From Pseudomonadota bacterium (GTDB lineage: Archaea; Thermoplasmatota; SW-10-69-26; JACQPN01; JAJPHT01), in NCBI GenBank assembly GCA_021325135.1, contig JAJPHT010000003.1, positions 1 through 62,062 on the forward strand: a DNA stretch of 62,062 nucleotides, given 5' to 3'. The notes beneath the pieces were generated by a model. It was not told where the DNA came from. It did no database searches and worked only from the letters and a program-made list of their open reading frames with translations. Made by a program: the position numbers and the translations under genes. Shown one piece after another: positions 3,002-25,747 of this stretch. The first letter of the stretch is position 1. Every line of letters begins with the position of its first letter.

Positions 3002-3357
3002 GCCCCGCCCTGTCCGTGCAGCTCACCCGGGCGGAGGCGCGCGCCATCCATGACCACTTCACGACGCCCAAGGACGTGAAGGAGGAGCCGGCCGCCCGCA
3101 CGCTGCGCGCCAGCCTGGCCCGGCTCCTGGCCGACTGGCACCAGCAGCGCCGCGAGGAGCGCGCGCTCCGCGTGAGCGCCGCCCAGGCGCGCGTGATCCT
3201 GCGCGCCGGCCTCCAGCTCGCCCAGACCGCCCGCCGCTCCCGCATGACGGGCGAGGAGTGCGCCGCGATCCTCACGGCCAGCCGCAAGGCGGAGACGGCG
3301 CTGGAGCTGGCGGCGGAGAAGGAGCGCCGCGCCGCCGCGAAGCGCGCGGGCGACTAG
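2998..3357 (+). CDS. Hypothetical helical protein
   Basis: GTGA-coupled to integrase; internal repeat VQLTRAEARAI / LRVSAAQARVI. Confidence 0.65.
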   Translation: MSPALSVQLTRAEARAIHDHFTTPKDVKEEPAARTLRASLARLLADWHQQRREERALRVSAAQARVILRAGLQLAQTARRSRMTGEECAAILTASRKAETALELAAEKERRAAAKRAGD

Positions 3358-3896
3358 ATCACGGACCCGCCGGCCGACTCGGCCGCGAGGAAGGCGGCCA
3401 CGCCCTCCAGCACGCCGGGGCGCCAGTGGTCCGTGAACAGCCCGTGCCGCCCCGTCCGGGCCAGGTGCGCCGCGAGGGCGGCGGGCTGGATCGCCACGCC
3501 GAAGTAGGCGTCGCCGGGCGGGTCCCACGTCGCATCGACCACGCGGCCCTCAGGCGTGACGCACCAGGCGTGATGCGTGGGGAACCCGCGCAGCGCGTAG
3601 CCCTCGGCGTAGCCCCACCCCTTGCTCTCCGCGAGGGTGGCGGCGTTGGTGAAGCAGTCCCGCGGGGGCATCGTCGGCACGCCCGCGGGCCGCGCCCCTG
3701 CCGGCGCGTCGAAGAAGCGCCCCTGGCCCATCAGGAACGTTTCCAGGCTCCGGGGCGCCTGCTTCGGAGAGATGCGCTCCGCGATGCCGCCCAGGTAGCC
3801 CAGGAGGGCCGTCTCGCCCTCGGTGCGCGCCTCGCGCCGCGGGGGCGGAGCTGGAGCAGTCGGGGGGGAGGGCTTGGCCCTTCGGGGGGCGTGCAT
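3354..3896 (-). CDS. Virus-type protein with putative Cys-His-Asp (transglutaminase/papain-like) triad
   Basis: DCFTNA...YAEGYA...PTHHAWCV...GRVVDATWD. Confidence 0.65.
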   Translation of the reverse strand: MHAPRRAKPSPPTAPAPPPRREARTEGETALLGYLGGIAERISPKQAPRSLETFLMGQGRFFDAPAGARPAGVPTMPPRDCFTNAATLAESKGWGYAEGYALRGFPTHHAWCVTPEGRVVDATWDPPGDAYFGVAIQPAALAAHLARTGRHGLFTDHWRPGVLEGVAAFLAAESAGGSVI

Positions 3897-3949
3897 GGAG
3901 AACGCGACCCGCACGCTTCCGGATCAAGATTGCCCCGCGGTGGGAGGGC

Positions 3950-4051
3950 TTACGCGGGGGAGCCGCACGAGGAGCAGGAGGGGCCGCGGCAGGAGCCCCA
4001 TTCACAGTCCGGGGGCATGAGGGGCGCCTGGCAGCAGGCGGACAAGGGCAT
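3950..4051 (-). CDS. 33-aa zinc-finger-like microprotein
   Basis: MPLSACCQAPLMPPDCEWGSCRGPSCSSCGSPA, translated by hand; below ORF-track cutoff. Confidence 0.45.
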   Translation of the reverse strand: MPLSACCQAPLMPPDCEWGSCRGPSCSSCGSPA

Positions 4052-4127
4052 CGGGATGGATGGCGGCGGCGGGAGCTTGGGCGCGAGCGGGAGGCCGCGC
4101 CGAAGCTACCGCGCGCCCGCCCGGGAT

Positions 4128-4268
4128 TCACCGGGCGGCGTCATCGAGCACCGAGGGAGGAAGGTGAAGGTCCGCCGCGAGGGCGCGGCCCTGCTCCTCG
4201 GTCATCAGGTGGTAGGTGAACACCGCGGCCTTGAGGGCGCGGGCCAGGGCGTGCTCCGTGGGCGTCAC
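4128..4268 (-). CDS. 46-aa hypothetical protein
   Basis: VTPTEHALARALKAAVFTYHLMTEEQGRALAADLHLPPSVLDDAAR; preceded by GGTGA Shine-Dalgarno. Confidence 0.55.
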   Translation of the reverse strand: MTPTEHALARALKAAVFTYHLMTEEQGRALAADLHLPPSVLDDAAR

Positions 4269-4274
4269 GACGGA

Positions 4275-4652
4275 TCACCGCGCGGAGTCGTCGGCGTGGT
4301 GGTCGGTCGCGGAGCCCAGCTCCGACGCCGCGGAGGAGTCGGGCTCCTCCGCGGCGTCGGAGCTGCGGGCGGCGCGGCGCGCGGCCCTGCGCGCCTCCTC
4401 CGCCTGGCGCTTGCGGAGCAGGAACGCGCGGGCGCGGGCGGCGCGGGCGCGCTCCCTGTCGTCCGTGGGCTCCTCCATCGCGCCTTGTCCCTGGAGGGCC
4501 AGCCGCAGGCTGTGACCCCATCCGGGCTTCTGCGCGCGATGGTTCGCGGCCACCTCGGCCTTGCCTAGTTCGTCCTGCAACTCGTCAATCAGGCTCGCCA
4601 CGTCAGGCGGAACCCACTTGGGCACGCGGTAGCTGTCGCTGGGGGTGGTCAT
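4275..4652 (-). CDS. Hypothetical protein
   Basis: 125 aa ORF with GAGGT SD, head of a leftward gene run. Confidence 0.6.
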   Translation of the reverse strand: MTTPSDSYRVPKWVPPDVASLIDELQDELGKAEVAANHRAQKPGWGHSLRLALQGQGAMEEPTDDRERARAARARAFLLRKRQAEEARRAARRAARSSDAAEEPDSSAASELGSATDHHADDSAR

Positions 4653-4874
4653 GGGAACCTCGTTTCTCTCTGCGCCTCCGAAGCCTCTCGGGAAGCGGGC
4701 GACGCGCGCCGGAGGCGTGCAACGCCGGGGTTGCCACCTACGTTCTTTTGGGTGGATATATTGCTTGCGCGGTGGAACCGGGTCTGCACCCGAGAAGATG
4801 GGCCTCTTCTGTCGAAGGCTCGCTAGAGCGTCAAAAGCAGCCTAGTGAAATTGGCTTTGCTTCCGGCGGTGCTA

Positions 4875-6473
4875 TCATCCGTCGCGTTGGCCGCTGGGTT
4901 TCGCCCGATCCAGCGCAGCGCGAACGCGGGGCCGGTCGCGGATGGGCTCAAAGCCTCGCCCCGTCGCCACGTCAACAGGAATATCCCACAAGAGGTCCGG
5001 AGCCTCCAGCGCCGCGACGATGGCCCCCTCTGCGGCGTCGAAATCGCCCAGCAGCAGATAGGACAGCGCGGCGTGGGCCTCCGCGGTTCCTTGCGGGCTG
5101 GGCATGGCGCGGGCGTAGGCCGCAAGCGCCTCCCGGTGGTGATCTAAGCGGGCCAGCGCGAGGCCGTAAGCTTCCCAATGTTCTCGGTTGCTATCGTCGG
5201 CTTGGATGGCATCGTTCCAGAAGGCGAGCGCGGTTTCCCGTAGGCTGCGAACATGGTCGGGATGGGCGGAGGAGGCCATGCGCTCGGCCTCCTCGGCCTT
5301 CATCGCGGCGGCCTCGGCGCGCTCGCGCCGCGAGCTGGGAGCCTCCAGCTCGACGGCCAGGCTGGGCCGTGCCGTGCGCGTCCTGCGATGCCTGCGGGCG
5401 TAGGTGGCCGCGCCCACGCACACGACGGCGGCCAGCGCGATCCCGAGGACAGCGGCCCAGGAGGGACCGGCGACCTCGGCGCGGAAGGGGGCCCGCGCGG
5501 TGCCCTTGAGCGTGGTCTGATCGAGCGAGCCCGTGAGGTCCACCCTCGCGACGGCGTCGCCCGTCTGTGTGGTCGTGGGCGTGAGGGTGGCGCGCAGCGT
5601 CCCGTTCATCGTCGCGGGCGAGCCCGTGGCGGAGTAGGTCAGTCCCGTTGTGTTGACCCAGCCCGCGAGGGGCGAGAAGTCCAAGGAGCCGGCCACCGCG
5701 AGCGTGGGGGGCGCGGTCGCCGCGATCTGGACGCCCGAGGCGTTGTCCAGCGTCACCGTGCCCGCGTCATACTCCAGCGTGACCCACCGCCGGTCTAACT
5801 CCTGCACGGTCGGCGTTTGCGTCGTGGTGTCACCCGTGGGCATCTGTTCGGCGCCTTGGTCGGACTCCAAGAGAACCGTGGAACCCTTGACCTTGAGCAG
5901 CCCGCCCCCCTCGATCATGGCGCGGCCGTAGCCAAGCGTGCCGATCAGGTGCGGGCCTGCCACCGTCTTGATGAAGGCGGGGTCCTTGGGCCCCTCCCAA
6001 TCTGTTACGCTGCCGCCCTCGCCGGGTCCTGGGCTCGCCATGCGGGTCAAGAGCTTGGGCTCCAGCTTCGCGCCCTCCCCGGTGAACGAGACGCTGGCGC
6101 CGCTCGCCGGAACAAACGCCATCCATCCTGATTCGTTTTGGGCGACGACGGCGCGGACGTTGGTGCGTTCGCTGCAAGGGTCCTGCTTGGTGACGGCGGA
6201 ACGCGCGGGGTCGCCTGTCACATTGACGCTAACCCAGCGGTGGAAGTGATAACAGACATTGGCGCGCGGGAGGAATGCAACGGCGTAGGTCTGCGAGGTG
6301 TTGCCGGCGAGGAGCGCCAAGGGATTGAATGCGGCAGTCGTGGCTCCCTGGGCCGCTAGGGGTCCGGTGGTGGATAGGTGGCTGTCCATGAGCGGCGAAC
6401 CGGCCAGGACGGCGGGCAGGGTGAGGAGCCCTGCAAGGAGCAGCGTAACTCCTTGCCCTCCCGTCACCCGCAT
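4875..6473 (-). CDS. Single-pass membrane protein: signal peptide, beta-rich extracellular domain, TM helix, cytoplasmic TPR-like domain (putative receptor)
   Basis: Signal peptide MRVTGGQGVTLLLAGLLTLPAVLA; TM WAAVLGIALAAVVCVGAATYA followed by RRHRR; TPR-like HWEAYGLALARLDHHREALAAYARA; homologous to 58291-59730. Confidence 0.8.
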   Translation of the reverse strand: MRVTGGQGVTLLLAGLLTLPAVLAGSPLMDSHLSTTGPLAAQGATTAAFNPLALLAGNTSQTYAVAFLPRANVCYHFHRWVSVNVTGDPARSAVTKQDPCSERTNVRAVVAQNESGWMAFVPASGASVSFTGEGAKLEPKLLTRMASPGPGEGGSVTDWEGPKDPAFIKTVAGPHLIGTLGYGRAMIEGGGLLKVKGSTVLLESDQGAEQMPTGDTTTQTPTVQELDRRWVTLEYDAGTVTLDNASGVQIAATAPPTLAVAGSLDFSPLAGWVNTTGLTYSATGSPATMNGTLRATLTPTTTQTGDAVARVDLTGSLDQTTLKGTARAPFRAEVAGPSWAAVLGIALAAVVCVGAATYARRHRRTRTARPSLAVELEAPSSRRERAEAAAMKAEEAERMASSAHPDHVRSLRETALAFWNDAIQADDSNREHWEAYGLALARLDHHREALAAYARAMPSPQGTAEAHAALSYLLLGDFDAAEGAIVAALEAPDLLWDIPVDVATGRGFEPIRDRPRVRAALDRAKPSGQRDG

Positions 6474-6669
6474 AGTGGCCCCGGCAACGGCCAAGTCCTG
6501 CTTGGCCTTATCCGTCCAAGGACTCCCCCGATTCACAACTAACCTACACAAAACCGCTGGCGGGGGGTGAATCGGTTCAGTTTTCACTCGGGATTTCCTG
6601 TGAAATTCGGGGAGGCACGCCGCGGCGCGAACCATTATCCGCGCCCAGGCGGCTCCTGGCGTGTTCCCC

Positions 6670-6999
6670 ATGATCGCCCGTCCTGCGCTCGGCGCCCTCA
6701 TGGTCGCGCTCCTTGCCGTCGCGCCTCTCGCGCTGGCCGACCCGGACCCTGGCAACGCGACGCCCCAGGCAGTCGTGAGCACGGCGCAGTCGTGCGCTGG
6801 CGTCGATCCGGGTCCGCCCCCTGCGCTCGTGGGTTCCTGCTGGAACGCTGCCGTCGCCTTCGGTGCGGAGGTCATCCTGCCCACGGAACTTGCGGGCGTC
6901 ATGCTCACTTGTTACGACGTGGATTATGGGCCACCCCCCAACGTCGTCTGGGGGCCGTGTGCTGCCGCTGCCCTGAACCTCACGGGCCTTCCCCCCTAA
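6670..6999 (+). CDS. Small secreted protein with two disulfide-loop repeats (putative signal peptide precursor)
   Basis: Signal peptide ending ALA; repeats SCAGVDPGPPPALVGSC and TCYDVDYGPPPNVVWGPC. Confidence 0.75.
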   Translation: MIARPALGALMVALLAVAPLALADPDPGNATPQAVVSTAQSCAGVDPGPPPALVGSCWNAAVAFGAEVILPTELAGVMLTCYDVDYGPPPNVVWGPCAAAALNLTGLPP

Positions 7000-7015
7000 T
7001 CGCTGGGCTCGCCTG

Positions 7016-7597
7016 TCACCGTCGTGCTTGGTTGGCCTCTTGCTGAATCCTGAGCGCCAGCGTGGCGACCTTGCGCCCCAGCGCGGTTAGCCGTATGCGG
7101 ACGTAGGGAACGCGGTTCTCTAGGCCCTGCTCGACCGTCACAAGGTCTAGCGCGACGATGCGGGCGCGCAGCTTGCCGGCGGGTCCGTACCCCAGCTCCA
7201 GGGCGGAGCGGAGAGCCGCGCTGTTCGTCACCGCGGGCTCGTTCGTCAGGACCACCACGAGCGCGAGGAGCGCGCGGGGCTCCTCCGTGATCCCCGGGAC
7301 CAGGGCCTCTATCTCGGCGGCGAGGTCCGCCACGCGGCGCCCGGCCTCGGTCAAGCGGACGGGGATCGGCTTGCGCTCCTCCTCCGTCTCGACCAGGCGC
7401 CAGGCGGCGAGGTCCATGCGCAACTCCGCGCTGTCCTTCTCGGCCGAGTAGCCGGTCCCGTTGTGGAAGCCGGTGGCGGTCGTCTCCTCGGGGTAGATGC
7501 TCCGGAGGTGGAGCAGGCCGCGGAACACCCGCGGACGCAGAAGAATGTCCCGCAGGTGGCCGCCCTCCCTCCTAGCGGCAGGCTTGGGGTCGGGCAA
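7016..7597 (-). CDS. Tandem winged-helix (MarR-like) transcription regulator
   Basis: Two wing motifs: PVRLTEAGRRVA and RIRLTALGRKVA; start codon uncertain (TTG). Confidence 0.7.
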   Translation of the reverse strand: MPDPKPAARREGGHLRDILLRPRVFRGLLHLRSIYPEETTATGFHNGTGYSAEKDSAELRMDLAAWRLVETEEERKPIPVRLTEAGRRVADLAAEIEALVPGITEEPRALLALVVVLTNEPAVTNSAALRSALELGYGPAGKLRARIVALDLVTVEQGLENRVPYVRIRLTALGRKVATLALRIQQEANQARR

Positions 7598-7697
7598 ACG
7601 CTTTTCCCAATAAGCGGGCTTCCGATGCAGTAGTCAACGGGAAGCCTGTTTGCATGGGGATGCCTGAGACGTGCCACGAGGGGAAGCCCCCTGCCGC

Positions 7698-7979
7698 ATG
7701 GCCGGGACGGGTGATCTAGTGCGGCAAGGGCGCGCCCTGGGGCGGGCTCGCGTTGGCTACCGCTGGGCCCCGGCAGGGACCACGACGTTCCTGACCCCTG
7801 CCGAGGCCGCGGCGGTCTTCCCCTTCGTCAACGCGGCGATCACGGGCAGCGGGACCGCGCTCATGGGGGGCGACGGGGCGGCGCTCATGTCCGCCCATCG
7901 CAAGCTCGACGCTGGCCGTAGCCACGTCCCGCCCAGCCCACGCCTGGTTCACATTCCTGGGGGGACAGGCCGGGCATGA
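7698..7979 (+). CDS. Hypothetical protein
   Basis: Short ORF divergent from the wHTH gene; no motif recognised. Confidence 0.35.
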   Translation: MAGTGDLVRQGRALGRARVGYRWAPAGTTTFLTPAEAAAVFPFVNAAITGSGTALMGGDGAALMSAHRKLDAGRSHVPPSPRLVHIPGGTGRA

Positions 7980-8010
7980 CGGCTCTAGGCGAGAGCGGGG
8001 GGCCGGAGTA

Positions 8011-8403
8011 GTGCGCTTCCGCGAAATGCTAGCCTGGGCCTTCCCCAAGGGAATGCCCATGCAGCTCCCTTCTGCGCGTCAACTGGAACAGGTCGGTTGG
8101 CTCGTGGCGCTCCGCCCGGGTCACGTCGTCGTTTGCCAGCCGCCCACGCCCGAGGAGTTGCCCCACGTCGTCAAGCTGCTCCGCGAGCGCCGCGAGCCCT
8201 CGCGCTGGTCGGGCGTGGCGATCTGCGAGCAGCGGGCCTCCGTCTCGTGGCTGCCCATCGGGCCCTACGACGCGGCGGAAACCGCGATCTGCGGCGCGTG
8301 CGCGCGTCATCTCGATTCCTGCTCCGAATGCCGGGCCGCTGTGGTGGATTCCCAAGCGGTCGCGCCGAGGAAAACGCCTAGGCCGTTCCGAACCCGGCGG
8401 TAG
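8011..8403 (+). CDS. Hypothetical protein, possible zinc binding
   Basis: AICEQ...AICGAC...CSEC cysteine pattern. Confidence 0.45.
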   Translation: MRFREMLAWAFPKGMPMQLPSARQLEQVGWLVALRPGHVVVCQPPTPEELPHVVKLLRERREPSRWSGVAICEQRASVSWLPIGPYDAAETAICGACARHLDSCSECRAAVVDSQAVAPRKTPRPFRTRR

Positions 8404-8613
8404 CAATCAACCAAGTCCCGTGCCACGAAACAGCACGTCACGGCGCTTGGGTTAGGTTACAGTTTGTGTCTTTTTCTCTGGGGGAATGCAACATTTCGGT
8501 TAGCTCTCAGATAGGTTCTTGTGAGCCATCGTGTTATTTTGTGGCGGGAGATAGGCTTGTCGCGGGTGATCCCCCGCCGCGTTGGGCTGCGATCCCGTGG
8601 AGACGAAAAACCA

Positions 8614-10287
8614 ATGAGACGAATCCTTGCGGTCCTCGTGACCGTCCTGATGCTTCCCCTCCTGTCCATGCCCTTCGTGTCCGCCACGGACCCGGAATGC
8701 GCGCCCGGCACCGCGACCGGAAGCTGTACCTTCACCGGCCCGACGCCCGGCGGTGTGTACGTCTATGACACGATCATCGTGCCCGCTGGCGTTACCGTGA
8801 CCTCCGACCTCTCGCTCGTGCTTCACGCGCGCAACGAGCTTCGCGTCGAGGGCAACGTCGTGGCGCCCACCGTCACGCTCGTTTCCGACCTCGCCGCCAT
8901 CGTGAGCGGCAACGTCCGCGGGCTCGACGGCAACGCGCTCACCCCGAACGGAGGCGACGTGAGCGTCACCGCCTCCAACCTCCTCTACACGGGCGTGATC
9001 CAGTCGGGCAACGGCGCCCCTGGCGTTGACGACGTGCAGAACGTCGGCGACACGCTCCCCACCGTCGCCGCGCACGCCACCCCCGGAGGCAACGGCGGCA
9101 ACGTCGTCATCAGCTCCCCCTCCCTCATCTTGCAGGGCTCATTCATCGTCGGCAACGGCGGCAAGGGCGGCTCCGCCCAGGCCATCGGCGGCACCATGTC
9201 CGCCAGCGCCATCGGCGGCGACGGCGGCGCCTCCGGCAACCTCGTCCTCCCCCCGACCTACAACGTCCTCAACGTCATCGGGGAGGGCCTTGTGACCGGC
9301 GGCGAGGGCGGCGACGGCGGCAACGCCTTCTCCCAGGTGTCTCAGACGCCCCCTTCCTACATGGCGCTCCCCAGCGACGCCGTGACGGGGCCCGTCAACG
9401 ACGCCACCCAGCAGGACCCCGGCACCGGCCCCGTCCCGCCGCTCGCGGCTGCGGTCCCCGCGCTGTACGGCCCCGACTCCTGGCCCGCGGCCAGCGACTC
9501 CCGCTCGTTCGTCGCCTGCAAGGGCGCGGACAGCACCGGGTACGGCGAGATGGGCAAGACCGGCTGCCAGGGCTGGAGCGGCTACGAGGACCGCACCACC
9601 GACGGCGGCAACGGCGGCTACGGCATCCTCCGCGGCGGGCGCGGCGGCGACGCCACCGCCTACGGCGGCCAGGGCGGCATGGGAGGGCGCGGCGGCAACG
9701 GCTTCAACCGCGACTGCACGATCTACACGAGCGGTCAGAGCACTTGCAGCAACCACTTCGGCGGCCAGGGCGGGCGCGGCGGGACCGGCGGCAACGCCTA
9801 CTCCTACGGCGGCAACGGCGGCTCCTCGGTCGTCCAGGGCGGCGCGGGCGGCGACGCCTACGCCTTCGGCGGCAAGGGCGGCACGGGCGGCCTGGGCGGC
9901 GACGGCGGCGGCGGCTGGGTCAACATGTACGACGGCGACCAGGTCTCCCAGACGCTCGCCACCATCGGCTGCATGAAGGGCATCTACACCTTCGAGGCGT
10001 TCGAGCTGGTCATCGGCTGCGGCGACTACCTGTGGGCGTCCAAGGGCACCTACTTCGTCTGCGGTGACCCCGGCGCCGCCGGTCCCGGCGGCGATCCCGG
10101 CCAGGGCTACGCCTCTGGCGGCGCGGGCGGGCGCAACCTCCAGGGCCTCGGCACCGCCGGCCCCTCGGGCAACAGCTACGGCTACCCGGGCTATTGGGGC
10201 AACAGCGGCACGCAGGGGGGACGGCAGAACACGGTCCTTCTCGTGAACGTCGCACCCGCCCAGTACGCTTCTCACGTCTGCGGTTAG
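8614..10287 (+). CDS. Secreted glycine-rich repeat protein (GGxGGxGG)
   Basis: Signal peptide MRRILAVLVTVLMLPLLSMPFVSA; many GGNGG/GGKGG/GGDGG repeats; paired Cys. Confidence 0.85.
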   Translation: MRRILAVLVTVLMLPLLSMPFVSATDPECAPGTATGSCTFTGPTPGGVYVYDTIIVPAGVTVTSDLSLVLHARNELRVEGNVVAPTVTLVSDLAAIVSGNVRGLDGNALTPNGGDVSVTASNLLYTGVIQSGNGAPGVDDVQNVGDTLPTVAAHATPGGNGGNVVISSPSLILQGSFIVGNGGKGGSAQAIGGTMSASAIGGDGGASGNLVLPPTYNVLNVIGEGLVTGGEGGDGGNAFSQVSQTPPSYMALPSDAVTGPVNDATQQDPGTGPVPPLAAAVPALYGPDSWPAASDSRSFVACKGADSTGYGEMGKTGCQGWSGYEDRTTDGGNGGYGILRGGRGGDATAYGGQGGMGGRGGNGFNRDCTIYTSGQSTCSNHFGGQGGRGGTGGNAYSYGGNGGSSVVQGGAGGDAYAFGGKGGTGGLGGDGGGGWVNMYDGDQVSQTLATIGCMKGIYTFEAFELVIGCGDYLWASKGTYFVCGDPGAAGPGGDPGQGYASGGAGGRNLQGLGTAGPSGNSYGYPGYWGNSGTQGGRQNTVLLVNVAPAQYASHVCG

Positions 10288-10443
10288 ACGCGAGCAACCT
10301 TCAGCCCCCGCGCTCGACGCCCGACGGCTCAGCGCGGGGGCGACCCCCCTCAATAAGACCTATCCACCCAAAACGCCCATCCTCTCGACAAAAGTTACAA
10401 CCGGGCCAAGTAACTCCCCGCCCGCCACCCTGCGAGGAATCCC

Positions 10444-12129: not shown

Positions 12130-12143
12130 AGGAGAGACGGTCC

Positions 12144-12692: not shown

Positions 12693-12710
12693 CACGCCCG
12701 GGGCACCACC

Positions 12711-14968: not shown

Positions 14969-14987
14969 ACCCTCCCGGTGATCCCTC

Positions 14988-17618: not shown

Positions 17619-17621
17619 ATC

Positions 17622-18848
17622 ATGCGCGCGCCGCGCGTCGTCGCCGCGATCCTCGCGGCGCTCCTGCTCTCCCCGTCCGTGCTCGCCGCGCAACAGCTTG
17701 AGATTGGCACCACGGACTTTGCCACCGAGAGCTTCAGCGCCGAGTCGGACAACCCGCCCACCGCCGACGACTACGCCTATGGCTTCCTCTCTCCCCCCTT
17801 CAGCGGGTACGAGCAGGGACCGGGAAGCATCCAGAGTTTCGGCGTGGAAGTGGCAACCGACTTCGGCACGCTCACCAGTGGGACCGGCGACCGCTCGCAG
17901 ATCACCACCATAACGGTGAGCAACAACACGACGACGGTTCTTCTGCGGTACGAGAGCCGCGCGACGCGCCACCTTCTCGGCTTCTTCACGCTCGACCAGA
18001 GCGCGTATGTGAATGGAACCCTCACCTGGCAATCCTCGCGCACGGAGCTTCACCCGTTCTCGGGGCTGCGCTATCAGACGAGCGCCATTCTTGCTTACAG
18101 CAACAACGACACCAACGCCTTCCCGCCCTCGCAAGGTCCCAACGTCATCAACACCCTGGGTTCCGCCTCGGAGACGATTCACGGGGGCGCGCTCTACTAC
18201 CTCGATCCCAACAGCGGGGGCGACTACTTCAGCGGCAAGCACGCAACCCGCTATCTCCTCGCCAACCTCTCGGGCGTCGTCGCCGTCACCGTCAGCACGG
18301 AATACCCCGACGGGTTGCCGAACGCGCTTGAGCTTCGCTATCGGTTCGAGGATGGCGACGCCTTGGCCGTGCGCGAAGCAGGCCAGGACTGCGGCAAGGG
18401 CTGGAAGAATTGGGTCCGCGACTCCTTGGGCGCCTGCCCGAGCGTCGCGGGCTTCCTCGACCTCCTGGCCGCGGGCTTCACGTCCGTCCTGGGCCTGATC
18501 CTGCGCGTCGTCGTGGGCGAGAAGGGGCAAGACCTGGCCGACTTCATGGGCGGCCTCGCGCAGCAGGGCATCAACGCCGTGGTTCTCCTCGTGCGCCTCG
18601 CAAGCATCGACACGCCCCGCGAGCTGGTGGCCTGGGAACTCCTGATCCTTTGTTATGCCATGGCGCTTGGCGGCTTCACCCACGACCCCACCGTTACGTT
18701 GTCCATCGCCAAGGGCGGCACAAAGGCGCTGGTCATGCTGGTTGTGGGCTGGTTCGTTTTCCTCTACCACGCCCTGCGCTTCAGCCTCACGCTCCTGGCG
18801 CGCATCGTCACCGCGATTGCCGATTTCCTGGGAGGCATCATCCCATGA
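17622..18848 (+). CDS. Putative virion membrane protein
   Basis: Signal peptide, extracellular domain with sequons, multi-TM C-terminal third. Confidence 0.8.
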   Translation: MRAPRVVAAILAALLLSPSVLAAQQLEIGTTDFATESFSAESDNPPTADDYAYGFLSPPFSGYEQGPGSIQSFGVEVATDFGTLTSGTGDRSQITTITVSNNTTTVLLRYESRATRHLLGFFTLDQSAYVNGTLTWQSSRTELHPFSGLRYQTSAILAYSNNDTNAFPPSQGPNVINTLGSASETIHGGALYYLDPNSGGDYFSGKHATRYLLANLSGVVAVTVSTEYPDGLPNALELRYRFEDGDALAVREAGQDCGKGWKNWVRDSLGACPSVAGFLDLLAAGFTSVLGLILRVVVGEKGQDLADFMGGLAQQGINAVVLLVRLASIDTPRELVAWELLILCYAMALGGFTHDPTVTLSIAKGGTKALVMLVVGWFVFLYHALRFSLTLLARIVTAIADFLGGIIP

Positions 18849-21181
18849 GAGCCCCGCCCGCGATCCACGCGCGCCGGCTGGCGCTCCTGCTCGACTTCTT
18901 GCCCCTCGCCCTCTTGGCCCTCACGCTCCTGCTCCACGTCGCCGCGGCATCCAGCGCGACGGATGGGAGCTGCGCGAGCACGACGGCCACCAGCCCGAGC
19001 GGCGGCACGCGCGTCTTCGCTCTCAGCGCCAGCGCGGCGACGGTGGGAACCTCCGGCTGCGCCTTGACGGGCGAGGGGATCACCGAGGCCGACGCCGGAG
19101 CGCCCATCGCCATCCGGTGCGTAGAGCTGACGACCCTGAACCTTCCCCCTGGCACGGCGGACTCCAACGGGATTCACCTCCGCGCCTACGCCGATGCGGA
19201 CAGCTTCCAGACCGGCGGAGCCGGCACCCCCGTATGGGAAGCCCTCCGCTCCTCCTGCTCCCCCGAGTGGGACGGGCAACTCTACTGTACCAGCGACGGC
19301 ACCGCGACGGGAGCGCCCCGCTACGGCACGCTGCGCCTTCTCGTGCGCGCCGTCCGAACCTCCACCCTCGCCTATGACGTGAACAGCGAAGACGCCGCGA
19401 CGACGAGCCATTGGGGCGTCGTTCGGTGCCTGCCGCGCGTGAGCAGCCTCACCGATCCCGGCCAGGCCATCAAGTACGTCGGTGGGGACTCCTTCCAGGC
19501 GAGCGCGAGCGCGACGGCGGGCGCCTACAACAGCGGCGCGACCGCGACCCTGAGCGCGACGTGCGGCAGCTTCACCGCGACCCTGGGCAGCGTCGCCCTG
19601 GCGCCCGACGTGGCGAGCGCGAGCGTGACCATCAAGGGCGACCCGGCGACGACGTGGCCCGCGCCCTGCTCCGTGGCCGAGTCCGTGATCCTCTCCCGGC
19701 TCTCGGCCGTCTCCGGCTTCACGGCACAGCCATACGCGCGCTGGTCCGCCACGGAGCCCACCGGCATCAGCCTGAGCGCGGACAAGCTCACCGCCTCCCG
19801 CTCGACGGGCAAGGGACTAGATCGCGGGCTCAGCGCCGCGGACTGCGCCGCCAGCGTGGCCGGCTCGCCGGTCGCCGTCGTGAACCGCCTGGAGAGCGTC
19901 ACGCTCGCCGCCCACTGGTCGAACGCCCGCGGCGAGGCCGTCCCCTCGGGCCGGCTCGTGGACGCCTACCCCTACCGCGTGGGGACCACGCCCGACGCGG
20001 AGACGGACTTCAACCACGTCGGCGCGACGGCGGGCGCCTCGGGCCTCGTGAGCGTCCTGGCGACGAGCCGCGCCACGAGCACGAGCACGCAGAACACGAC
20101 CGCGCCGGACTATGCCCTGTGGTTGAAGACCTACGGCGCGACCCGCACGACCGCGGAGCTTTACAACTTGGGCGGCTGCCCGGCGTTCTTTGACCTCTCG
20201 TGGGTGTGGACCTTCGGGAACCTCACGCTCTCCAAGCAGCAGGCGCCCGTCCAGAACGCGAGCGTCTTTGTCATCGGCGCCGACCTCATGTATGCGCGCG
20301 CCGAGAACTTGACCGAGGCCGACGGCCTGCGCGTCGCAGGCGAGGCCGTCACCTGCCAGCGCACGCTCCCCGACGGCTCGACCGAGACGGCCGCGAGCCT
20401 GGGCACGACGGGCACCACCGGCACAACGGGGCTTCACCAATTCCTCATCGTCGCCCCGCCCGGGACGTGGCTCCTCGCGTGCAGCGCGGCGGACAACGGC
20501 AACTATGCGGTGTTCGTCGTCGCCTACACGCACGCCAGCCCCGTGAGCGCGCAGACCTCGCTCTCGATCCTCGCGGAGCCCGTCTCCGGCGGCTTCTCCG
20601 TCAACGTCTCGGTGGTCATGCGCGCGTATGACCCGGGGTGCGACTGCCCCGCCCGCGCCTTCCCGGACGCCGGCGGCGCCGTGCGCCTCACCGTCCTGGC
20701 GTGGAACAACACCACCGCGACGTATGACGCGCCCGTCTTGCGGTGGGCGATGAACCAGACGAGCCCCACGGAGTCGGCCTTCTTCGCCGTGGTGAACGTC
20801 TCGGCGTGGAACGCCTCGCGGCCCGTCGTCGTCATGGTCAGCGCGAACATGACCGGCCGCGCGTTCCTCGCCTCGGGCAGCTACGCGGCGCTGGCCGTCT
20901 CGACGGAGAGCGCCGCGCCGCCCAGCGTCATCGACGGCACGTTGCCGTTCTTCATCATCATGGCCGTGGGCCTGGGGTTCCTCGCGTTGACCCTGGCCTT
21001 CGGCCTGCCCTATTTCGCCGTCTTCACGTTGGCGGCGACGTTCGCGGGCTATGCGCTTTACCATCAGGCCCAGGCGCAAGGTGTGGTGATCCTCGCGGGT
21101 CCCTACGTCCCCATGCTCCTCTTGACGGAGGGCCTGTCCAGCATCGGGGCGGCAGCATACGCATACCGGAAGGTGAGCTAG
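18845..21181 (+). CDS. Large membrane-anchored glycoprotein (putative virion protein)
   Basis: ATGA-coupled start; signal peptide; many sequons and paired Cys; three C-terminal TM helices. Confidence 0.8.
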   Translation: MRAPPAIHARRLALLLDFLPLALLALTLLLHVAAASSATDGSCASTTATSPSGGTRVFALSASAATVGTSGCALTGEGITEADAGAPIAIRCVELTTLNLPPGTADSNGIHLRAYADADSFQTGGAGTPVWEALRSSCSPEWDGQLYCTSDGTATGAPRYGTLRLLVRAVRTSTLAYDVNSEDAATTSHWGVVRCLPRVSSLTDPGQAIKYVGGDSFQASASATAGAYNSGATATLSATCGSFTATLGSVALAPDVASASVTIKGDPATTWPAPCSVAESVILSRLSAVSGFTAQPYARWSATEPTGISLSADKLTASRSTGKGLDRGLSAADCAASVAGSPVAVVNRLESVTLAAHWSNARGEAVPSGRLVDAYPYRVGTTPDAETDFNHVGATAGASGLVSVLATSRATSTSTQNTTAPDYALWLKTYGATRTTAELYNLGGCPAFFDLSWVWTFGNLTLSKQQAPVQNASVFVIGADLMYARAENLTEADGLRVAGEAVTCQRTLPDGSTETAASLGTTGTTGTTGLHQFLIVAPPGTWLLACSAADNGNYAVFVVAYTHASPVSAQTSLSILAEPVSGGFSVNVSVVMRAYDPGCDCPARAFPDAGGAVRLTVLAWNNTTATYDAPVLRWAMNQTSPTESAFFAVVNVSAWNASRPVVVMVSANMTGRAFLASGSYAALAVSTESAAPPSVIDGTLPFFIIMAVGLGFLALTLAFGLPYFAVFTLAATFAGYALYHQAQAQGVVILAGPYVPMLLLTEGLSSIGAAAYAYRKVS

Positions 21182-21259
21182 CACGACCCCACACGAGACG
21201 ACCGGCGGCCACGCGCCGCAGCAGACCCCCACGACCACCCCGCCCACGGGAGGGAGCGC

Positions 21260-21685
21260 ATGAGCCGCAAGGTCCGCGCCCTCATCTTCGGCGGGCATGA
21301 AGTCGAACGCGCCCGCGTCATCCACGAGGGCGCCAACCTCTTCCACAAGCCGACCAACCGGCGGTGGGCCATCAAGGGCGGCCCCATCCTGGGCCGCCGC
21401 CCGTGGGTCTTCGGCGGCAGCGCCGACACCTACCTGTGCAGCGCCGAGACGGCAACGACGTTCGACCCGCCGCGCGACACGAGCGCGGCGACGATCAACG
21501 GCAAGGAGTACCAGATCACGCCCGAGTTCTTGGCCGAGCTGCTGGACAACCGCGACTTGGCCGCCTTGAACCAGGCGTCGAAGCCCACGCCGGTCCTCCT
21601 GCTGCTCCTCGCGGCGGGCGCGGGCGCGGCGGCCATGGTCATCCTTCAGATGGTCCTCAAGGCGACGAGCCACGGGGGCGGCTAG
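21260..21685 (+). CDS. Hypothetical protein with C-terminal TM anchor
   Basis: GGAGGGAG SD; VLLLLLAAGAGAAAMVILQMVL. Confidence 0.75.
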   Translation: MSRKVRALIFGGHEVERARVIHEGANLFHKPTNRRWAIKGGPILGRRPWVFGGSADTYLCSAETATTFDPPRDTSAATINGKEYQITPEFLAELLDNRDLAALNQASKPTPVLLLLLAAGAGAAAMVILQMVLKATSHGGG

Positions 21686-22078
21686 ATGCGCCACCCGGAG
21701 CCCGCCCCGCCCGAGGATGAAGAAGGCTTCGCATTCGAGGATGAAGGAGTCGAAGGCGTGGTCGAAGCCCTGGGCCCCGAGCCCACCGAGGATCAGACCA
21801 TCAGCCTCCTTCACGAGTTTGGGCAGCCCCCCGAGTACCGCACGATGGCGAAGCACACGCCCGAAATGATCCACCTGGGCGCCATCGTGCTCACCAAGGG
21901 CCGGTTCCTCGGCTCGACGCTGCGCGAACAGGTGGTCGAAAACCTGTTCCTCATGTCCCGCAGCACGGACGGGTGGGGCAGCGAGCAGATGAAGGAGATC
22001 GCCGCGCGCCAGCCCGGCACGCGCGCCGGCCCGATCCGGCGCTTCTTCGGCCTCGGTCGGAAGGAGGGCCAGGCATGA
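21686..22078 (+). CDS. Hypothetical protein, acidic N-terminus
   Basis: TAG-ATG abutting; coupled to next gene. Confidence 0.7.
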   Translation: MRHPEPAPPEDEEGFAFEDEGVEGVVEALGPEPTEDQTISLLHEFGQPPEYRTMAKHTPEMIHLGAIVLTKGRFLGSTLREQVVENLFLMSRSTDGWGSEQMKEIAARQPGTRAGPIRRFFGLGRKEGQA

Positions 22079-22434
22079 GCGCGCCCGATGGCCTGACCAC
22101 CAGCGGGGGCTTCAGCCCGCAGGAGATGGACGCCTTCCAAGTCTATCAGTGGCGCGGCATCGTCAGCCACCACAAGACGTATGCCCACCTGTCCCGCGAC
22201 GGGAAGCGCACCGCCTGGGAGTCCTGCAAGACGTTTGCCGACCTCCTGATTCCCCAGGCGAGCCCGGACTTTCTCAAAGCCTACCGCGACGCCTGCGCGC
22301 GTCGCAAGCGCGGCGACTGGCCCACGGAACGCCTCTTCATCGCCTGCGAGCTGGAGATGAAGCGACAGAAGCGCCTCGGACGCGACCAGCTCAAGCCGAG
22401 CAAGGACGCCGGGATTCTGACCCGGGGACTCTGA
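22075..22434 (+). CDS. Hypothetical protein
   Basis: ATGA-coupled start with GGAGG SD. Confidence 0.7.
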   Translation: MSAPDGLTTSGGFSPQEMDAFQVYQWRGIVSHHKTYAHLSRDGKRTAWESCKTFADLLIPQASPDFLKAYRDACARRKRGDWPTERLFIACELEMKRQKRLGRDQLKPSKDAGILTRGL

Positions 22435-22448
22435 GGGGGGACTAGATC

Positions 22449-23282
22449 ACGACCACGAGCCCCACGCCCCAGCGCGAGCCCTCGCCCGACTCCAACGACC
22501 CGGAGCGGGAGAACGTCCTGCGCGCGGAGTACCAGATTGTCCGGCGCAAGATCACCGACGAGAACTTCGATTTCGTCACCGTCATCAGCGGGTACGAGGG
22601 CAGCGGGAAGTCCACGCTGGCCCTCAAGGTCGCCGGCTACACCGACCCGACGTTCGACGGCACGCGCGTAGCCTTCACGGGCGACGAGCTTCTAGAGCTG
22701 ATGGAGAGCGCGCCCCGCGGCTCCTCCATCCTCTTTGACGAGGCCGCCATGGGCCTCTACAACCGCGAGAGCATGACCGCGACAAACCGCGCGATCACCA
22801 CGGCGGCCATGATCGCCCGCGCGAAGAACTACCACATGGTCTTGTGCATCCCGTCGTTCTGGTCGCTCGACGCCTACTTCCGCGACCACCGCGCCCGCTG
22901 CTGGATTCACGTTGAACGCCGCGGCGAGGCCGTGGTTCACGTCCCCGTTCGCCAGCGGTACACCAAGGACGTGTTTTGGGAACAGGTGATCCTCCACTTC
23001 TTCAGCCCCATCAAGGGCGCCGTGTGGGACGCCTACGAGGCCCGGAAGATGGCGTTCATTCAGAAGGCGCTCAAGGCCGCGAAGGAGCGCGACCGGCCCC
23101 AGGAGAACGATGAAGACGCCGCGGCGCGCGACAACGCCTTGGCGGAGGAAATCGCCGCGAACCCCGAGTTTTGGACGCCCAAGGGATACGCGAAGCGCGG
23201 CCTCATCGCCGCGCGCTATGGCCTGAGCGCCTTCCACGCGCGCCACGTTGCGGAAGTCGCCAAGGGCCACCGGGAGGGCTAG
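22449..23282 (+). CDS. P-loop ATPase of the type found in spindle-shaped/pleomorphic virus morphogenesis modules
   Basis: Walker A FVTVISGYEGSGKST lies in frame upstream of the ATG at 22701; Walker B ILFDEA; ARAKNYHMVLCIPSFWSLDAYFR. Start is non-canonical (ACG 22449 or ATC 22446). Confidence 0.85.
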   Translation, partial: TTTSPTPQREPSPDSNDPERENVLRAEYQIVRRKITDENFDFVTVISGYEGSGKSTLALKVAGYTDPTFDGTRVAFTGDELLELMESAPRGSSILFDEAAMGLYNRESMTATNRAITTAAMIARAKNYHMVLCIPSFWSLDAYFRDHRARCWIHVERRGEAVVHVPVRQRYTKDVFWEQVILHFFSPIKGAVWDAYEARKMAFIQKALKAAKERDRPQENDEDAAARDNALAEEIAANPEFWTPKGYAKRGLIAARYGLSAFHARHVAEVAKGHREG

Positions 23283-23758
23283 TCCTCGTGGGGCTCATAG
23301 AGGGAGGCCGCCTTCTCCAACGCCTCGGCGGCGGCCCGCGCGGCGCGCGCAGCCGCGGAGAGCGCCCTCCCCGCGGACACCTCCAAGCGGATCGCGTCCG
23401 CCACGTCCTGCTCCGCGTTGACCGCCTCGATGCCGGCGCTCATCAGCTCGTGCCCCATCGCGTGATCCCCCGCGCCCTGCGCGATCACCGCGACCTGGGC
23501 GGCCAGGGCGCCCGCCGCGCCCGCGGCGGCCTTGGCCGAGACGACGGCGCGGAAGATGGCGCGCGCCTCCATCTCCTCCTCCGCGTCCTCCGGCTCCTCC
23601 TGGCCCGTCTCCTGCGGCAAGGCGACGTAGCCGGCGGGCTGCGCGCATTGCTCGTGAAGGCGAACGGTGGTCCCCTTGTCTTCCAAGGTGATCCCCGTTC
23701 CCTCGGGGACCGGGTTTCCGCAATGGGTACATGGCTGGGACCGTCCGGCGGCCGTCAT
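23279..23758 (-). CDS. Zinc-finger plus helical domain protein
   Basis: CTHC...HEQC then Ala-rich helices; convergent with ATPase, sharing CTAG as both stops. Confidence 0.65.
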   Translation of the reverse strand: MTAAGRSQPCTHCGNPVPEGTGITLEDKGTTVRLHEQCAQPAGYVALPQETGQEEPEDAEEEMEARAIFRAVVSAKAAAGAAGALAAQVAVIAQGAGDHAMGHELMSAGIEAVNAEQDVADAIRLEVSAGRALSAAARAARAAAEALEKAASLYEPHED

Positions 23759-23974
23759 CTTGGCGCCGAAGCAAGGACGCCCGTAAGGGGGTTTCGGGGT
23801 CCCGAGCGTTACCCGAGGAGTGGTGAGAGAGATGCGAACCCCTCCCCTTTCTTGATTCAATGGGTAGCGCACGGCGACGAATGGCCGGAAGGTGGAACGC
23901 ACGAGCCGCCGCAGCGCGCCGGCCGGTGCTGGAGCCGGCACCGGGAGCCAGCCCCAGGCCCCGGCCGCGCCCGC

Positions 23975-24061
23975 CTACAAGCGCGCGGCGATGCCGACGG
24001 CGACGAGCCAGGCCAGGAGCACGAGGCGCGCGAGCGACGAGGGATCAAGGAGGGCTGACAT
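23975..24061 (-). CDS. 28-aa single-TM microprotein
   Basis: MSALLDPSSLARLVLLAWLVAVGIAARL with GAGGT SD. Confidence 0.45.
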   Translation of the reverse strand: MSALLDPSSLARLVLLAWLVAVGIAARL

Positions 24062-24333
24062 GGGGACCTCAGAGAGACGAGGGCACGAGCGCGCAACCCC
24101 TCGCGCGCTTCTGACCCCCTGCCGGCTCGACGGCGCGCTTCGGGGTGGTGGTTGTCGGTGTCCGAACGTCCCCCGTTGGAGTCCGCAGCATCGGGGAGGC
24201 AGGAGCGGCCCCGGAGTCGTGCCTTTCGGTTCTGACCGGGCCTCGGTCGTTGGCGAGGAAACCCGTGAAACGGCGCGCATCCACGCCGGCCAGGCTCGAC
24301 ACGTTGAAGGACCCCGCCGCGCCCTGTCTGAGC

Positions 24334-24537
24334 ATGGAGCCCGAGGAGTCGGCCAAGCTCGCCGCGCTGTTCGTCCTCCTGGGCCTCATCGCCCTCCTGT
24401 TCCTGTCGTGGACGGTGACGGGACTCCTTCTCCTGGCCTTCGCCATCGCCGCCGGGATCGACGCCCGGGTGGGCTACGCGCGGGCCGAGGCCGCCGAGCG
24501 CGGCGAGGCCGAGGGCCAGCCCCCGGCGCAGCCCTGA
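24334..24537 (+). CDS. Small membrane protein
   Basis: LAALFVLLGLIALLFLSWTVTGLLLLAFAIAAGI. Confidence 0.65.
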   Translation: MEPEESAKLAALFVLLGLIALLFLSWTVTGLLLLAFAIAAGIDARVGYARAEAAERGEAEGQPPAQP

Positions 24538-24582
24538 GCGGGAGCGCGGCCTTGAAGCGGCGCCCCGCCGCTTGCCGCCCGC

Positions 24583-25044
24583 ATGAGCCCCACCCCGCCC
24601 GCGCGCCGGGCCGCGCCCTCGCGCAGCTACCGGCGGGGCCTGGTGGTGGGCGTCTTCGTCGCGGCCCTCGCGGGGCTCCTGGGCTACGCGGCGGGCGACG
24701 CCGCCGCCGTCGTGGTCCTCTCCTTCGGCCTCCCGGTGGGCGTGGGCGTCGCCGCGGGCCCCGTCGTCATCACGGCGCTGGCGATCCTCGCCGTCCTCGC
24801 CGTCTTCGCGTTCAAGCCCGCGTGGGCCAGCTCCCGCGGCTACACCCGCGGCGCCACCGTCGGGCTCTTGGCCGCCGTCGTGCTCTACTTCAGCGCGCGG
24901 CTGGCGGGCGGCCTCGTGGTCGCCCTGATCCGCGCCGACGGCTGGCCCGCGTGGACTCGGCTCCTGCTCGTGCCCCTCGTGGCCGTGCCCCTCGTGCTCC
25001 TCGTGGGGGCGGGAGTCGTCGCCCTGGGCCGCCGGCTCGACTAG
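24583..25044 (+). CDS. Multi-pass membrane protein
   Basis: Four to five hydrophobic segments. Confidence 0.7.
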   Translation: MSPTPPARRAAPSRSYRRGLVVGVFVAALAGLLGYAAGDAAAVVVLSFGLPVGVGVAAGPVVITALAILAVLAVFAFKPAWASSRGYTRGATVGLLAAVVLYFSARLAGGLVVALIRADGWPAWTRLLLVPLVAVPLVLLVGAGVVALGRRLD

Positions 25045-25747
25045 ATCACGCGCCCCACCTTGGGGCCGCCCCGTCCGTGGCGCCCAGGAGGCCGGGCGCG
25101 CGATGGCGGCGCATGGAAGCCCTCGGGTCCCCCACCGATGCCTTCCCCGCGATCCTCGCGCATTAGGCGACGTCCGCGTCCCCAATCGCCACGCTGGCCG
25201 AAGCGGCGACCGCGGGCCATGTAGCCCCAAAATCCAAGACGGGATCAGCCGTCTAGCACACCAGGCCGGGGCCTGAAGCCTCCTCGCACAACCTTCTCTC
25301 CCTGGCCTTCTTTCTCACAAGTCGTCGCGGTTTCGACGGACGCGGCGCGGCGGGTTCGCTTCGATCCGCCGCAGCCCATCGGTTGCACCGCAACCAAGCA
25401 GAAGCAAGCTGCCGCAGCCTTCCGGCTTCGCGGCAGCGGGGGCAGGATGGGCACGGCCCGGCGCCAGCCTCCCACGAGGGCGCGGACCGAGGGCACCCCC
25501 GCTGCCTCTCCTCCGGTGAGTCCCCCCAGGAGAGGAACCGCTCTCTTCATGTGCCGTAACGCAGGTTGCAGCCGTCGTGCTGCGCCCCTCGGCCCGCCCT
25601 GTCGCCGGCCCCCACGCCCGCCCGCAGTACGCTTGCCGGGCCTGCGGTGCCATGGCGACGCCCCGCGTTGAAGGGGCCTGTCCGCGATGCGGGGCGCCCC
25701 TGGGGAGCCCCGTTGTCTAGGCCTGCCGCAAGCCGCCAAACCTAAGT

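Follow-up and report, generated by a model that had tools for sequence, protein, structure and literature searches.

An exact, oriented short word at gene boundaries of an integrated virus-like element in a soil Thermoplasmatota archaeon

Contig JAJPHT010000003.1, called C7 here, is one of the 51 contigs of a Thermoplasmatota genome of 3.77 Mb and 71.6% GC, and the window analysed is this entire contig of 62,062 nucleotides. From about position 460 to about 26,400, the window holds an integrated element that is rich in CTAG and nearly without Pfam or PHROG matches. The element carries nine copies of the word ACTAGATC, eight on the plus strand and one on the minus strand. This word is a selected, polar, and element-specific cis-signal, a conclusion that is well supported: the copies are exact, extremely enriched, biased to one strand, located at gene boundaries, and kept in spite of codon bias. 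As to what the signal does, we tentatively favour an array of operator- or stoperator-like sites that would be read by a winged-helix protein encoded by the element itself.

Dispersed, oriented words at gene junctions are already known as a kind, namely as stoperators in bacterial phages, and GCCCA is a strand-specific motif of haloarchaeal pleolipoviruses. What is new in the present case is the host domain and virus type, together with a very short invariant core of two overlapping palindromes, one of which the host avoids. Also new are a site that is often itself the stop codon, on either strand, and a core that is common to two unrelated elements of one genome. We know of no such word for the viruses of Thermoplasmatota, and of no cultured virus–host system in this group. 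A short, exact word that is nearly absent from the host is a clean handle, since it predicts a specific binding or cutting activity, and it could serve as a marker for relatives of the virus group. It is also relevant to the way in which archaea with GC-rich genomes, in which T-rich terminators are difficult to accommodate, halt or slow their RNA polymerase.

Enrichment and exactness of the word

The nine copies are exact matches and lie within 3353–25047 of the window. All of their coordinates and strands had been given correctly in the original prediction, which was made from the sequence alone.

3353–3360, plus strand: class I, GGGCGACTAGATCACG; TAG stops gene 2998–3357; end of the integrase operon
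7713–7720, minus strand: the sole inverted copy, CACTAGATCACC; in a 121-bp divergent region
13160–13167, plus strand: class II, ACTAGATCGG; intergenic, 6 nucleotides past the TGA of membrane-protein gene 12711–13154
14264–14271, plus strand: class II; TAG stops the weak open reading frame (ORF) 14020–14268; also Leu-Asp-Arg, codons 7–9, of the overlapping 14244–14513
14895–14902, plus strand: class I; TAG stops the small hydrophobic capsid-like gene 14618/14675–14899
17614–17621, plus strand: AGGAGGCACTAGATCATG; TAG stops the gene of an 876-residue secreted protein; then ATC and the ATG of the 408-residue protein gene
19816–19823, plus strand: deep within the 778-residue protein gene 18845–21181; CTA GAT CGC, read as Leu-Asp-Arg
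22441–22448, plus strand: class I; 7 nucleotides past the TGA of 22075–22434; preceded by GAGGGGGG
25040–25047, plus strand: class I; TAG stops 24583–25044; end of a plus-strand operon

Chance accounts for almost none of these copies. Dinucleotide shuffles of the window give 0.23 copies, with nine reached in none of 100 shuffles, and a third-order Markov model of the element gives 0.14 (p = 5.6e-14); both values are close to the rough figure of 0.2 first proposed. At the rate seen in the rest of the genome, 0.014 copies would be expected in the element (p = 5e-23). The word is the most enriched of all 8-mers when the element is compared with the genome (p = 5e-22), and it also ranks first against the third-order Markov model of the element itself.

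The whole genome contains only 11 copies, comprising the nine on C7, one on C24, and one on C26. The C24 copy, at 24918, is antisense within a helicase gene and is the only one in host DNA outside mobile elements, while the C26 copy, at 10237, lies within a second integrated element. The 36 kb of host DNA in the window lacks the word, as the first inspection had found, and each of 40 related genomes has between zero and four, which is not above a control word. The possibility that the motif is equally frequent across the genome, raised in advance as grounds for discarding it, is thus contradicted by a total of two copies outside the element. The claim that the word is seen only within the element stands insofar as it is nearly absent elsewhere, but it does not hold strictly, because the unrelated element on C26 has the core, in one instance as part of the 21-mer GCATGGGCGACTAGATCACGC.

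All nine copies are invariant. Variants with one mismatch occur at 0.11 per kb in the element versus 0.27 per kb in the genome; they are not enriched, and since they are rarer in the element, ACTAGATC has no degenerate halo around it. Similarity nevertheless extends beyond the core in a graded manner. The 12-mer GACTAGATCACG is present at 3352, 14894, 22440, and 25039, and once on C26, these five being the only ones in the genome. The 16-mer GGGCGACTAGATCACG is present at 3348 and 14890; both of these longer identities had been reported for the window and were recovered at the same positions. The extended consensus is (GGGC)GACTAGATCACG(C). Among the flank variants, three copies have ACTAGATCG(G/C) and two have CACTAGATCA; further forms of the motif are the extended GGGCGACTAGATCACGC and the class II ACTAGATCGC. 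The longest shared stretch is the 21-mer (C7:14886–14906), which is common to copy 14895 and to C26:10237. Its flanks are unrelated, and no protein homology lies behind this match between C7 and C26.

No dyad symmetry was found around the copies, and folding of 52-nucleotide windows gave no shared hairpin. The word itself tends to stay unpaired, as expected for an AT-rich island in GC-rich sequence. Taken together, the missing halo, the graded asymmetric consensus of 12–21 nucleotides that the flanks form, and the lack of a dyad or hairpin argue for a protein-sized site that is read as sequence, and not for an RNA structure. No other long repeat was found to accompany the motif, and the idea of regular spacing was dropped (coefficient of variation of intervals 0.58, n = 8).

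Several trivial or unrelated origins were set aside. An assembly or adapter artefact was rejected, as contigs from an independent study cover copies 13160 and 25040 with no mismatches, and so was an RNA guide from elsewhere in the genome, because no further complement of the 8-mer exists. A polar chromosomal word of the Chi or KOPS type was likewise rejected, given the single copy in host DNA outside mobile elements. A candidate second motif, GGCAACGG, proved to be a Gly-Asn-Gly codon repeat in a Gly-rich protein.

The CTAG and GATC background

The core CTAGATC (GATCTAG on the opposite strand) is the only sequence of seven bases that joins CTAG and GATC through a single shared base. CTAG occurs 749 times in the genome compared with about 9,750 expected from base composition (observed/expected 0.08), while GATC is not depleted, with 13,204 copies (observed/expected 1.35). 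CTAG density in the element is about six times that of the host.

This background lends some appeal to the idea that the overlap marks a collision of two methylation or restriction specificities, either as a methylation switch or as a means of protecting CTAG in a host that avoids it. We consider this very unlikely. A collision would account for tolerance of the word, but not for its 60-fold excess. It also leaves unexplained the invariant leading A, the flanks, and the strand bias of a word with two palindromic cores. The other 21–23 CTAG sites of the element lack the motif context, and no methyltransferase was recognised in Pfam and PHROG scans of the element's proteins.

When the genome is divided into 5-kb bins, those rich in CTAG include the elements on C7 and C26, along with bins on C8, C19, C27, C45, and elsewhere.

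Placement at gene boundaries

The relation of the copies to genes was assessed on a gene map derived from a codon log-likelihood model, which was trained on long ORFs of the genome. Seven of the nine copies lie within 1–9 nucleotides of a called gene end (P = 5e-5; 11% of the element is within 25 nucleotides of a boundary), and four or five of the nine supply the stop codon. The earlier description of seven junction copies that often provide a TAG stop is therefore accurate. Other CTAG sites in the element are less confined to such places, with five of 21 within 25 nucleotides of a called boundary (Fisher p = 0.009).

The TAG of the motif ends genes 2998–3357, 14675–14899, 14988–17618, and 24583–25044, and also the weak ORF 14020–14268. 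At 13160 and 22441, it is out of frame with the upstream gene. The palindromic CTAG at 3354 doubles as the stop of a convergent minus-strand gene, 3354–3914, and at 17614 stop and start are bridged as AGGAGG-C-AC-TAG-ATC-ATG. Class I copies close both plus-strand operons (3353 and 25040), and are also found after the capsid-like gene (14895) and before the ATPase gene (22441).

ATC follows five of 825 TAG stops in the host, compared with five of about 13 in the element (p = 9e-8). Because TAG-ATC is rare at host stops, a bias in stop context, which had been named beforehand as a possible explanation, does not explain the motif. Across 1.05 million host codons, CTA makes up 0.4% of leucine codons, so that it is indeed as unusual as had been remarked, and GAT makes up 4.9% of aspartate codons. 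Copy 19816 is spelled with both of these rare codons, which points to selection on the DNA or RNA word and not on the protein. This in-gene copy is maintained against codon bias.

The word could also act without a dedicated protein, as a leaky AGATC-type terminator or attenuator, or as an mRNA stop/restart signal (TAG-ATC-AYG) that couples translation. AGATC is contained in the motif in sense orientation, and the plus-strand operons of the element end without T-runs; in the host, T-runs mark gene ends. A precedent exists in Haloferax volcanii, where AGATC lies just downstream of 456 of 736 coding-region transcript 3' ends and gave 11–27% termination in reporters (Berkemer et al. 2020, PMC7237163). 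The two cases are alike in that a GC-rich archaeon has sense-strand AGATC where transcripts could end without a T-run, and leakiness would suit sites within operons. However, AGATC in H. volcanii is found genome-wide inside coding regions, whereas here it is embedded in an invariant 8–12-mer of one element. In the present genome, AGATC is frequent in host genes but shows no enrichment behind their stop codons (3,330 host genes), whereas TTTT is enriched 10–90-fold in the first 70 nucleotides. With AGATC unlinked to host gene ends, the invariant ACT and the extended consensus are left unexplained by it. AGATC is, moreover, identical to the first five bases of the Illumina adapter, and the published 3'-end signal may be partly a trimming artefact, which also counts against a terminator.

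The stop/restart version draws on the TAG ATC ATG bridge behind AGGAGG at 17614, and on copy 22441, which follows GAGGGGGG and at whose ATC (22446) the ATPase reading frame opens, with no canonical start before the Walker A motif. However, it fits only 17614 and perhaps 22441. When frames are opened at ATC or ACG, they prove non-coding at copies 14895 and 25040, and at 3353 and 13160 they are short and tell nothing either way; a general start role for these two codons was rejected on this basis. The ATPase could start equally well at CTG 22518, which has a GGGAG of its own, and the out-of-frame TAGs at 13160 and 22441 stop no upstream gene. Both versions are further weakened by the absence of any conserved RNA structure, and by the core on C26, which is mostly antisense to genes. 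Protein-free action of the word thus appears rather improbable. A promoter role was also rejected, as the spacing to start codons is inconsistent.

Polarity and the second element

The plus strand of the element carries eight of the nine copies and most of the genes. The inverted copy, 7713–7720, is sense to the minus-strand gene 7016–7597, so that all nine copies in the window match the local direction of transcription. On the plus strand, the inverted copy reads GGTGATCTAGTG, a Shine-Dalgarno-like sequence with a start codon: it overlaps GGTGATC, of the host Shine-Dalgarno type, and GTG 7719 of a weak plus-strand ORF, the first of a long plus-strand operon.

The core is also present in the second integrated element, whose features on C26 are as follows.

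About 2,500–15,900: second integrated element of about 13 kb, with an integrase and an HTH protein
2817–4340, plus strand: tandem HTH_20 protein
13882–15051, minus strand: Pfam phage integrase (E = 1.3e-5)
15052–15825, minus strand: RHH-like gene

CTAGATC is present on C26 at 4334, 6960, 10237, 11421, and 13879, always on the minus strand, and these copies are five of the genome total of 27. Three of the five supply TAG stops, two of them through the other strand of the palindromic CTAG, and CTAGATC forms the stop context of the C26 integrase gene. When C7 and C26 are pooled, 13 of 14 copies of the motif or core are co-oriented with the integrase gene (p = 0.0009). Since the core on C26 follows the strand of the integrase and not that of the genes, a polarity acting at the level of DNA is still viable. 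Polarity for packaging or translocation is neither supported nor excluded.

One such DNA-level reading is that, in viral DNA that has been replicated or packaged, the motif marks nicks in a specific strand or short single-stranded gaps, made by a strict nuclease or by the replication machinery. Localised, sequence-specific nicks on one strand, partly intergenic and spaced by kilobases, are known from phage T5 and phiKMV-like phages. The present word resembles these in its restriction to mainly one strand, its partly intergenic position, and its kilobase dispersal, but T5 and phiKMV-like phages are bacterial tailed phages with a different and longer consensus, and no nicking enzyme was identified in the present element. 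Closer at hand are the betapleolipoviruses HRPV-3, SNJ2, and HHPV4, in which GCCCA precedes single-stranded gaps and its polarity follows switches in transcription (PMC3384331, PMC5867852). The GCCCA system and ACTAGATC share an archaeal membrane-containing virus or provirus and a short, exact, one-strand motif; the interruptions in HRPV-3 follow an exact short motif whose polarity switches with transcription, as it does here (PMC3384331, PMC5867852). An invariant 8-mer without a halo fits enzyme-like specificity, and the strand bias on C7 (eight of nine) and C26 (five of five), together with the agreement with the integrase strand, suits a process acting on DNA. The element is also of a suitable kind, a membrane-protein-rich, ATPase-bearing archaeal provirus of spindle or pleomorphic type, and it contains an HNH-like ORF (13329–13673), recognised by eye only.

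Against this, the element is integrated, at host depth, and is known here from assembled contigs alone. Its word is longer than GCCCA and different from it, with nine copies compared with 27–35 and a much stricter placement at gene ends, and GCCCA itself has no polarity in the element (60 on the plus strand and 84 on the minus strand, a ratio similar to that of host DNA). The ATPase matches those of the spindle-shaped viruses TPV1 and LSV-48N, with no pleolipovirus among the four virus records matched, and the HNH-like ORF lacks Pfam and PHROG support. Nicking also leaves the flanking consensus and the placement in a regulator region unexplained. On balance, this reading seems somewhat improbable.

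The sharing of the word by two elements raises a further possibility, that the copies are linker words at module boundaries, used for gene exchange between co-resident elements by short-homology or site-specific recombination. The copies do lie at gene boundaries, and two unrelated elements share the word, including an identity of 21 nucleotides between unrelated flanks. Integrase genes on C26 and C45 have their stop codon in a CTAGATC context, and on C7 the word ends the integrase operon. Dyads centred on ACTAGT, of which there are only 12 occurrences in the genome, are found near both ends of the element on C7.

585–594: palindrome CGACTAGTCG, close to the element's left end; includes ACTAG, half of the motif, in dyad form
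26383–26396: palindrome GGCAACTAGTTGCC, near the right end of the element; centred on ACTAGT

Both palindromes could represent ACTAG, half of the motif, arranged as a dyad. However, the copies themselves have no tyrosine-recombinase core dyad or spacer, and no contig joins two of them. Recombination between direct repeats would delete essential genes, 8–21 nucleotides is very short for homologous exchange, and copy 19816 lies off any module boundary. A tyrosine-recombinase core or att-type site was rejected, the ACTAGT dyads at the ends being separate features, and gene exchange through linker words is judged quite unlikely. Of the interpretations first listed for the motif, a polar, element-specific cis-signal is retained; for a recombination site, the copies lack a dyad and the contigs show no copy-to-copy joins.

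A candidate operator network

The operator- or stoperator-like reading centres on two genes of the element.

7016–7597, minus strand: probable winged-helix DNA-binding regulator, with its start at 7597; divergent from the long plus-strand operon
688–1113, plus strand: RHH-like protein with a coiled coil, upstream of the integrase; weak Protein Atlas leads to RHH_1, TacA, and NikA-like proteins

In this scheme, a single sequence-specific protein of the provirus would dock at an asymmetric site that has ACTAGATC, with its flanks, as its core. The reader would most likely be the winged-helix regulator 7016–7597, the RHH-like protein 688–1113 being a less likely candidate. The inverted copy would serve as an operator between the regulator gene and the long plus-strand structural operon. 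At the other eight copies, bound protein would impede or attenuate RNA polymerase between consecutive genes, with the outcome that the integrated element is kept silent or that relative gene levels are set. Protein binding, the identity of the reader, and the effect on transcription are all points that we infer. Besides the exactness, enrichment, polarity, and boundary placement of the word and its spelling against codon bias, three aspects of the layout suggest a docking site: the inverted copy lies in a divergent region beside the probable winged-helix gene; the overall layout is like that of published stoperators; and the plus-strand operons have no T-runs, with class I copies at the ends of two of them.

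In Cluster A mycobacteriophages, a single repressor recognises asymmetric sites, one at the lytic promoter, one ahead of the repressor gene, and two to three dozen dispersed along the genome (PMC6550527, PMC9283540). Most of these stoperators point the same way with respect to transcription, and elongation is halted by the bound repressor (PMC6550527, PMC9283540). The sites of L5 gp71, Bxb1 gp69, and the TipsytheTRex repressor are like ACTAGATC in being asymmetric, dispersed through a temperate element, and, within the C7 element, oriented in one main direction. They are also alike in occupying short intergenic spaces or stop codons, in having a copy in what would here be the control region of the regulator, and in being virtually absent from the host. 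The differences are nevertheless substantial. The present host is an archaeon with a different transcription machinery, and its element has an invariant core of 8 bp and nine sites in 26 kb, whereas stoperators have a 13–14-bp consensus with variation and number 24–36 in about 50 kb. The candidate reader here is a winged-helix protein, in contrast to the HTH-plus-stirrup repressor of the L5 type, and the second element has the core antisense to genes, unlike stoperators.

The nearest Protein Atlas clusters of protein 7016–7597 are all winged-helix families (score 0.9), and weak matches were obtained to Pfam HTH_34 (E = 0.21) and to a PHROG transcriptional regulator (E = 0.022). Its single-sequence AlphaFold2 (AF2) model was unusable (pLDDT 41). 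Two similar helix-wing segments can be seen by eye, and these would suit an asymmetric site read by a monomer.

A number of observations weigh against the operator-like reading. The most important concerns C26, where all five core copies are co-oriented with the integrase and four of the five are antisense to genes. Such a layout is at odds with a site polar to transcription, unless the arrays on C7 and C26 serve different functions, and the link between orientation and integrase is the main fact that falls outside a purely transcription-polar model. In addition, neither BLASTP nor hhalign detected a protein common to the C7 and C26 elements, so that no element-encoded reader common to both is apparent. 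Most operator sets are less strict than this invariant 8-mer, whose lack of degenerate copies is more reminiscent of the site of an enzyme. The winged-helix assignment of 7016–7597 is weak, and this gene may be part of a receptor–peptide signalling module that is also found in host DNA. Boundary placement could be partly a tolerance effect and need not indicate a site of action, as the word has a stop in one frame per strand and otherwise requires rare codons. Finally, protein-seeded scans of GTDB genomes, IMG/VR, and JGI metagenomes recovered no syntenic relative of the element.

If the regulator does belong to such a module, it might read the exact polar array under the control of a secreted peptide that decides read-through of the structural operon, an archaeal combination of arbitrium and stoperators. 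Either this, or a role of the sites as programmed strand interruptions of 8-base specificity in a new group of archaeal viruses, would be a striking outcome, but an unlikely one.

The provirus and its genes

We identify the element as an integrase-bearing provirus of an uncultured Thermoplasmatota archaeon from soil, resembling spindle-shaped or pleomorphic viruses. The combination of a P-loop ATPase, a small hydrophobic protein, large anchored secreted proteins, and an integrase matches the make-up of spindle-shaped or pleomorphic archaeal viruses. Its depth in the source run equals that of the host, at about 20-fold, in keeping with an integrated state. The remaining genes on which this assignment is based are listed below.

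1679–3001, plus strand: tyrosine recombinase (integrase) of 440 amino acids, by predicted fold; no Pfam hit
14988–21181, plus strand: three large proteins (876, 408, and 778 amino acids), secreted and anchored in the membrane at the C-terminus; presumed virion or surface module
22446–23282, plus strand: P-loop ATPase of the archaeal spindle-shaped-virus type (tblastn; PHROG 5484 and 38691)

The AF2 model of the 440-residue protein (pLDDT 61) had only tyrosine recombinases as its top Foldseek hits, these being archaeal XerA, XerD, lambda Int, Tn1549 Int, and Cre. A sequence search of the PDB with a profile of the integrase family gave no match. The genome has three paralogues with 42–44% identity (C39:18234–19790, C45:55021–56631, and C46:154270–155862). 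Each is preceded by a relative of the RHH-like gene 688–1113, and the one on C45 ends in CTAGATC. The four copies thus form a family of tyrosine recombinases of about 440–536 amino acids, seen by predicted fold only.

Matches of the ATPase by tblastn include Thermococcus prieurii virus 1 (TPV1) and LSV-48N, a lemon-shaped virus of Haloferax. The ATPase frame reaches its Walker A motif (GYEGSGKST) before any ATG, GTG, or TTG. Candidate starts are ATC 22446 or ACG 22449, behind GAGGGGGG, and CTG 22518, behind GGGAG; homologues have 28–50 residues ahead of Walker A, which is compatible with either start. A small, doubly hydrophobic protein is encoded upstream of the ATPase, together with the three anchored secreted proteins. 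The gene order of small hydrophobic protein, large anchored secreted proteins, and P-loop ATPase resembles what we take to be the pleolipovirus core. The structural genes 14988–21181 have no Pfam or PHROG match. Candidates for a major capsid protein or terminase, the 440-residue and 549-residue proteins, turned out to be the integrase and a secreted protein, respectively.

The HNH-like pattern in ORF 13329–13673 reads LEVHHVGG ... LVFMCRRHNRE, and its product would be a nickase candidate, if real. The region 8614–12692 encodes three secreted proteins rich in Cys or Gly (557, about 500, and 160 amino acids); this module recurs in shuffled, multi-copy form in two related genomes (G002 and G007), outside any virus-like context.

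Contigs that match the element (window 7001–27000, with 0–1 differences) are present at 2–4-fold depth in two mine metagenomes of another study, indicating that this element or organism is not confined to the source soil. At its left end (3–443), C7 overlaps the right end of C10 (14878–14982) by 35 residues that are 100% identical. The host gene at this overlap resembles, by eye, the C-terminus of an aminoacyl-tRNA synthetase. C7 and C10 probably join here, which would place the insertion of the element just downstream of that gene.

Search for relatives

The scans for relatives made use of several proteins of the element. Against genome contigs, the 876-residue protein found one non-syntenic locus in a Thermoplasmata metagenome-assembled genome, without any CTAG. 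Scans of IMG/VR with the 549-residue, 440-residue, ATPase, and 408-residue proteins found nothing, nor did a metagenome scan with the 778-residue protein. Scans with the motif itself (a 14-mer in IMG/VR and a 16-mer in metagenomes) gave isolated, random-looking matches and no clusters. The 549-residue protein belongs to a family of Gly-rich secreted proteins, of which related genomes have several copies in non-syntenic positions. An identical copy of this protein is encoded on a 285-kb contig.

Homologues of the ATPase, with 26–46% identity, are present in 27 of the 400 other Thermoplasmatota genomes searched. Five loci around distant homologues contained no comparable oriented word. A different type of repeat was noted around the ATPase homologue of one Thermoplasmatota genome (G305:C1:1150001–1190000), in which the palindrome GTTGCAAC occurs 12 times compared with 0.57 expected, both strands being counted.

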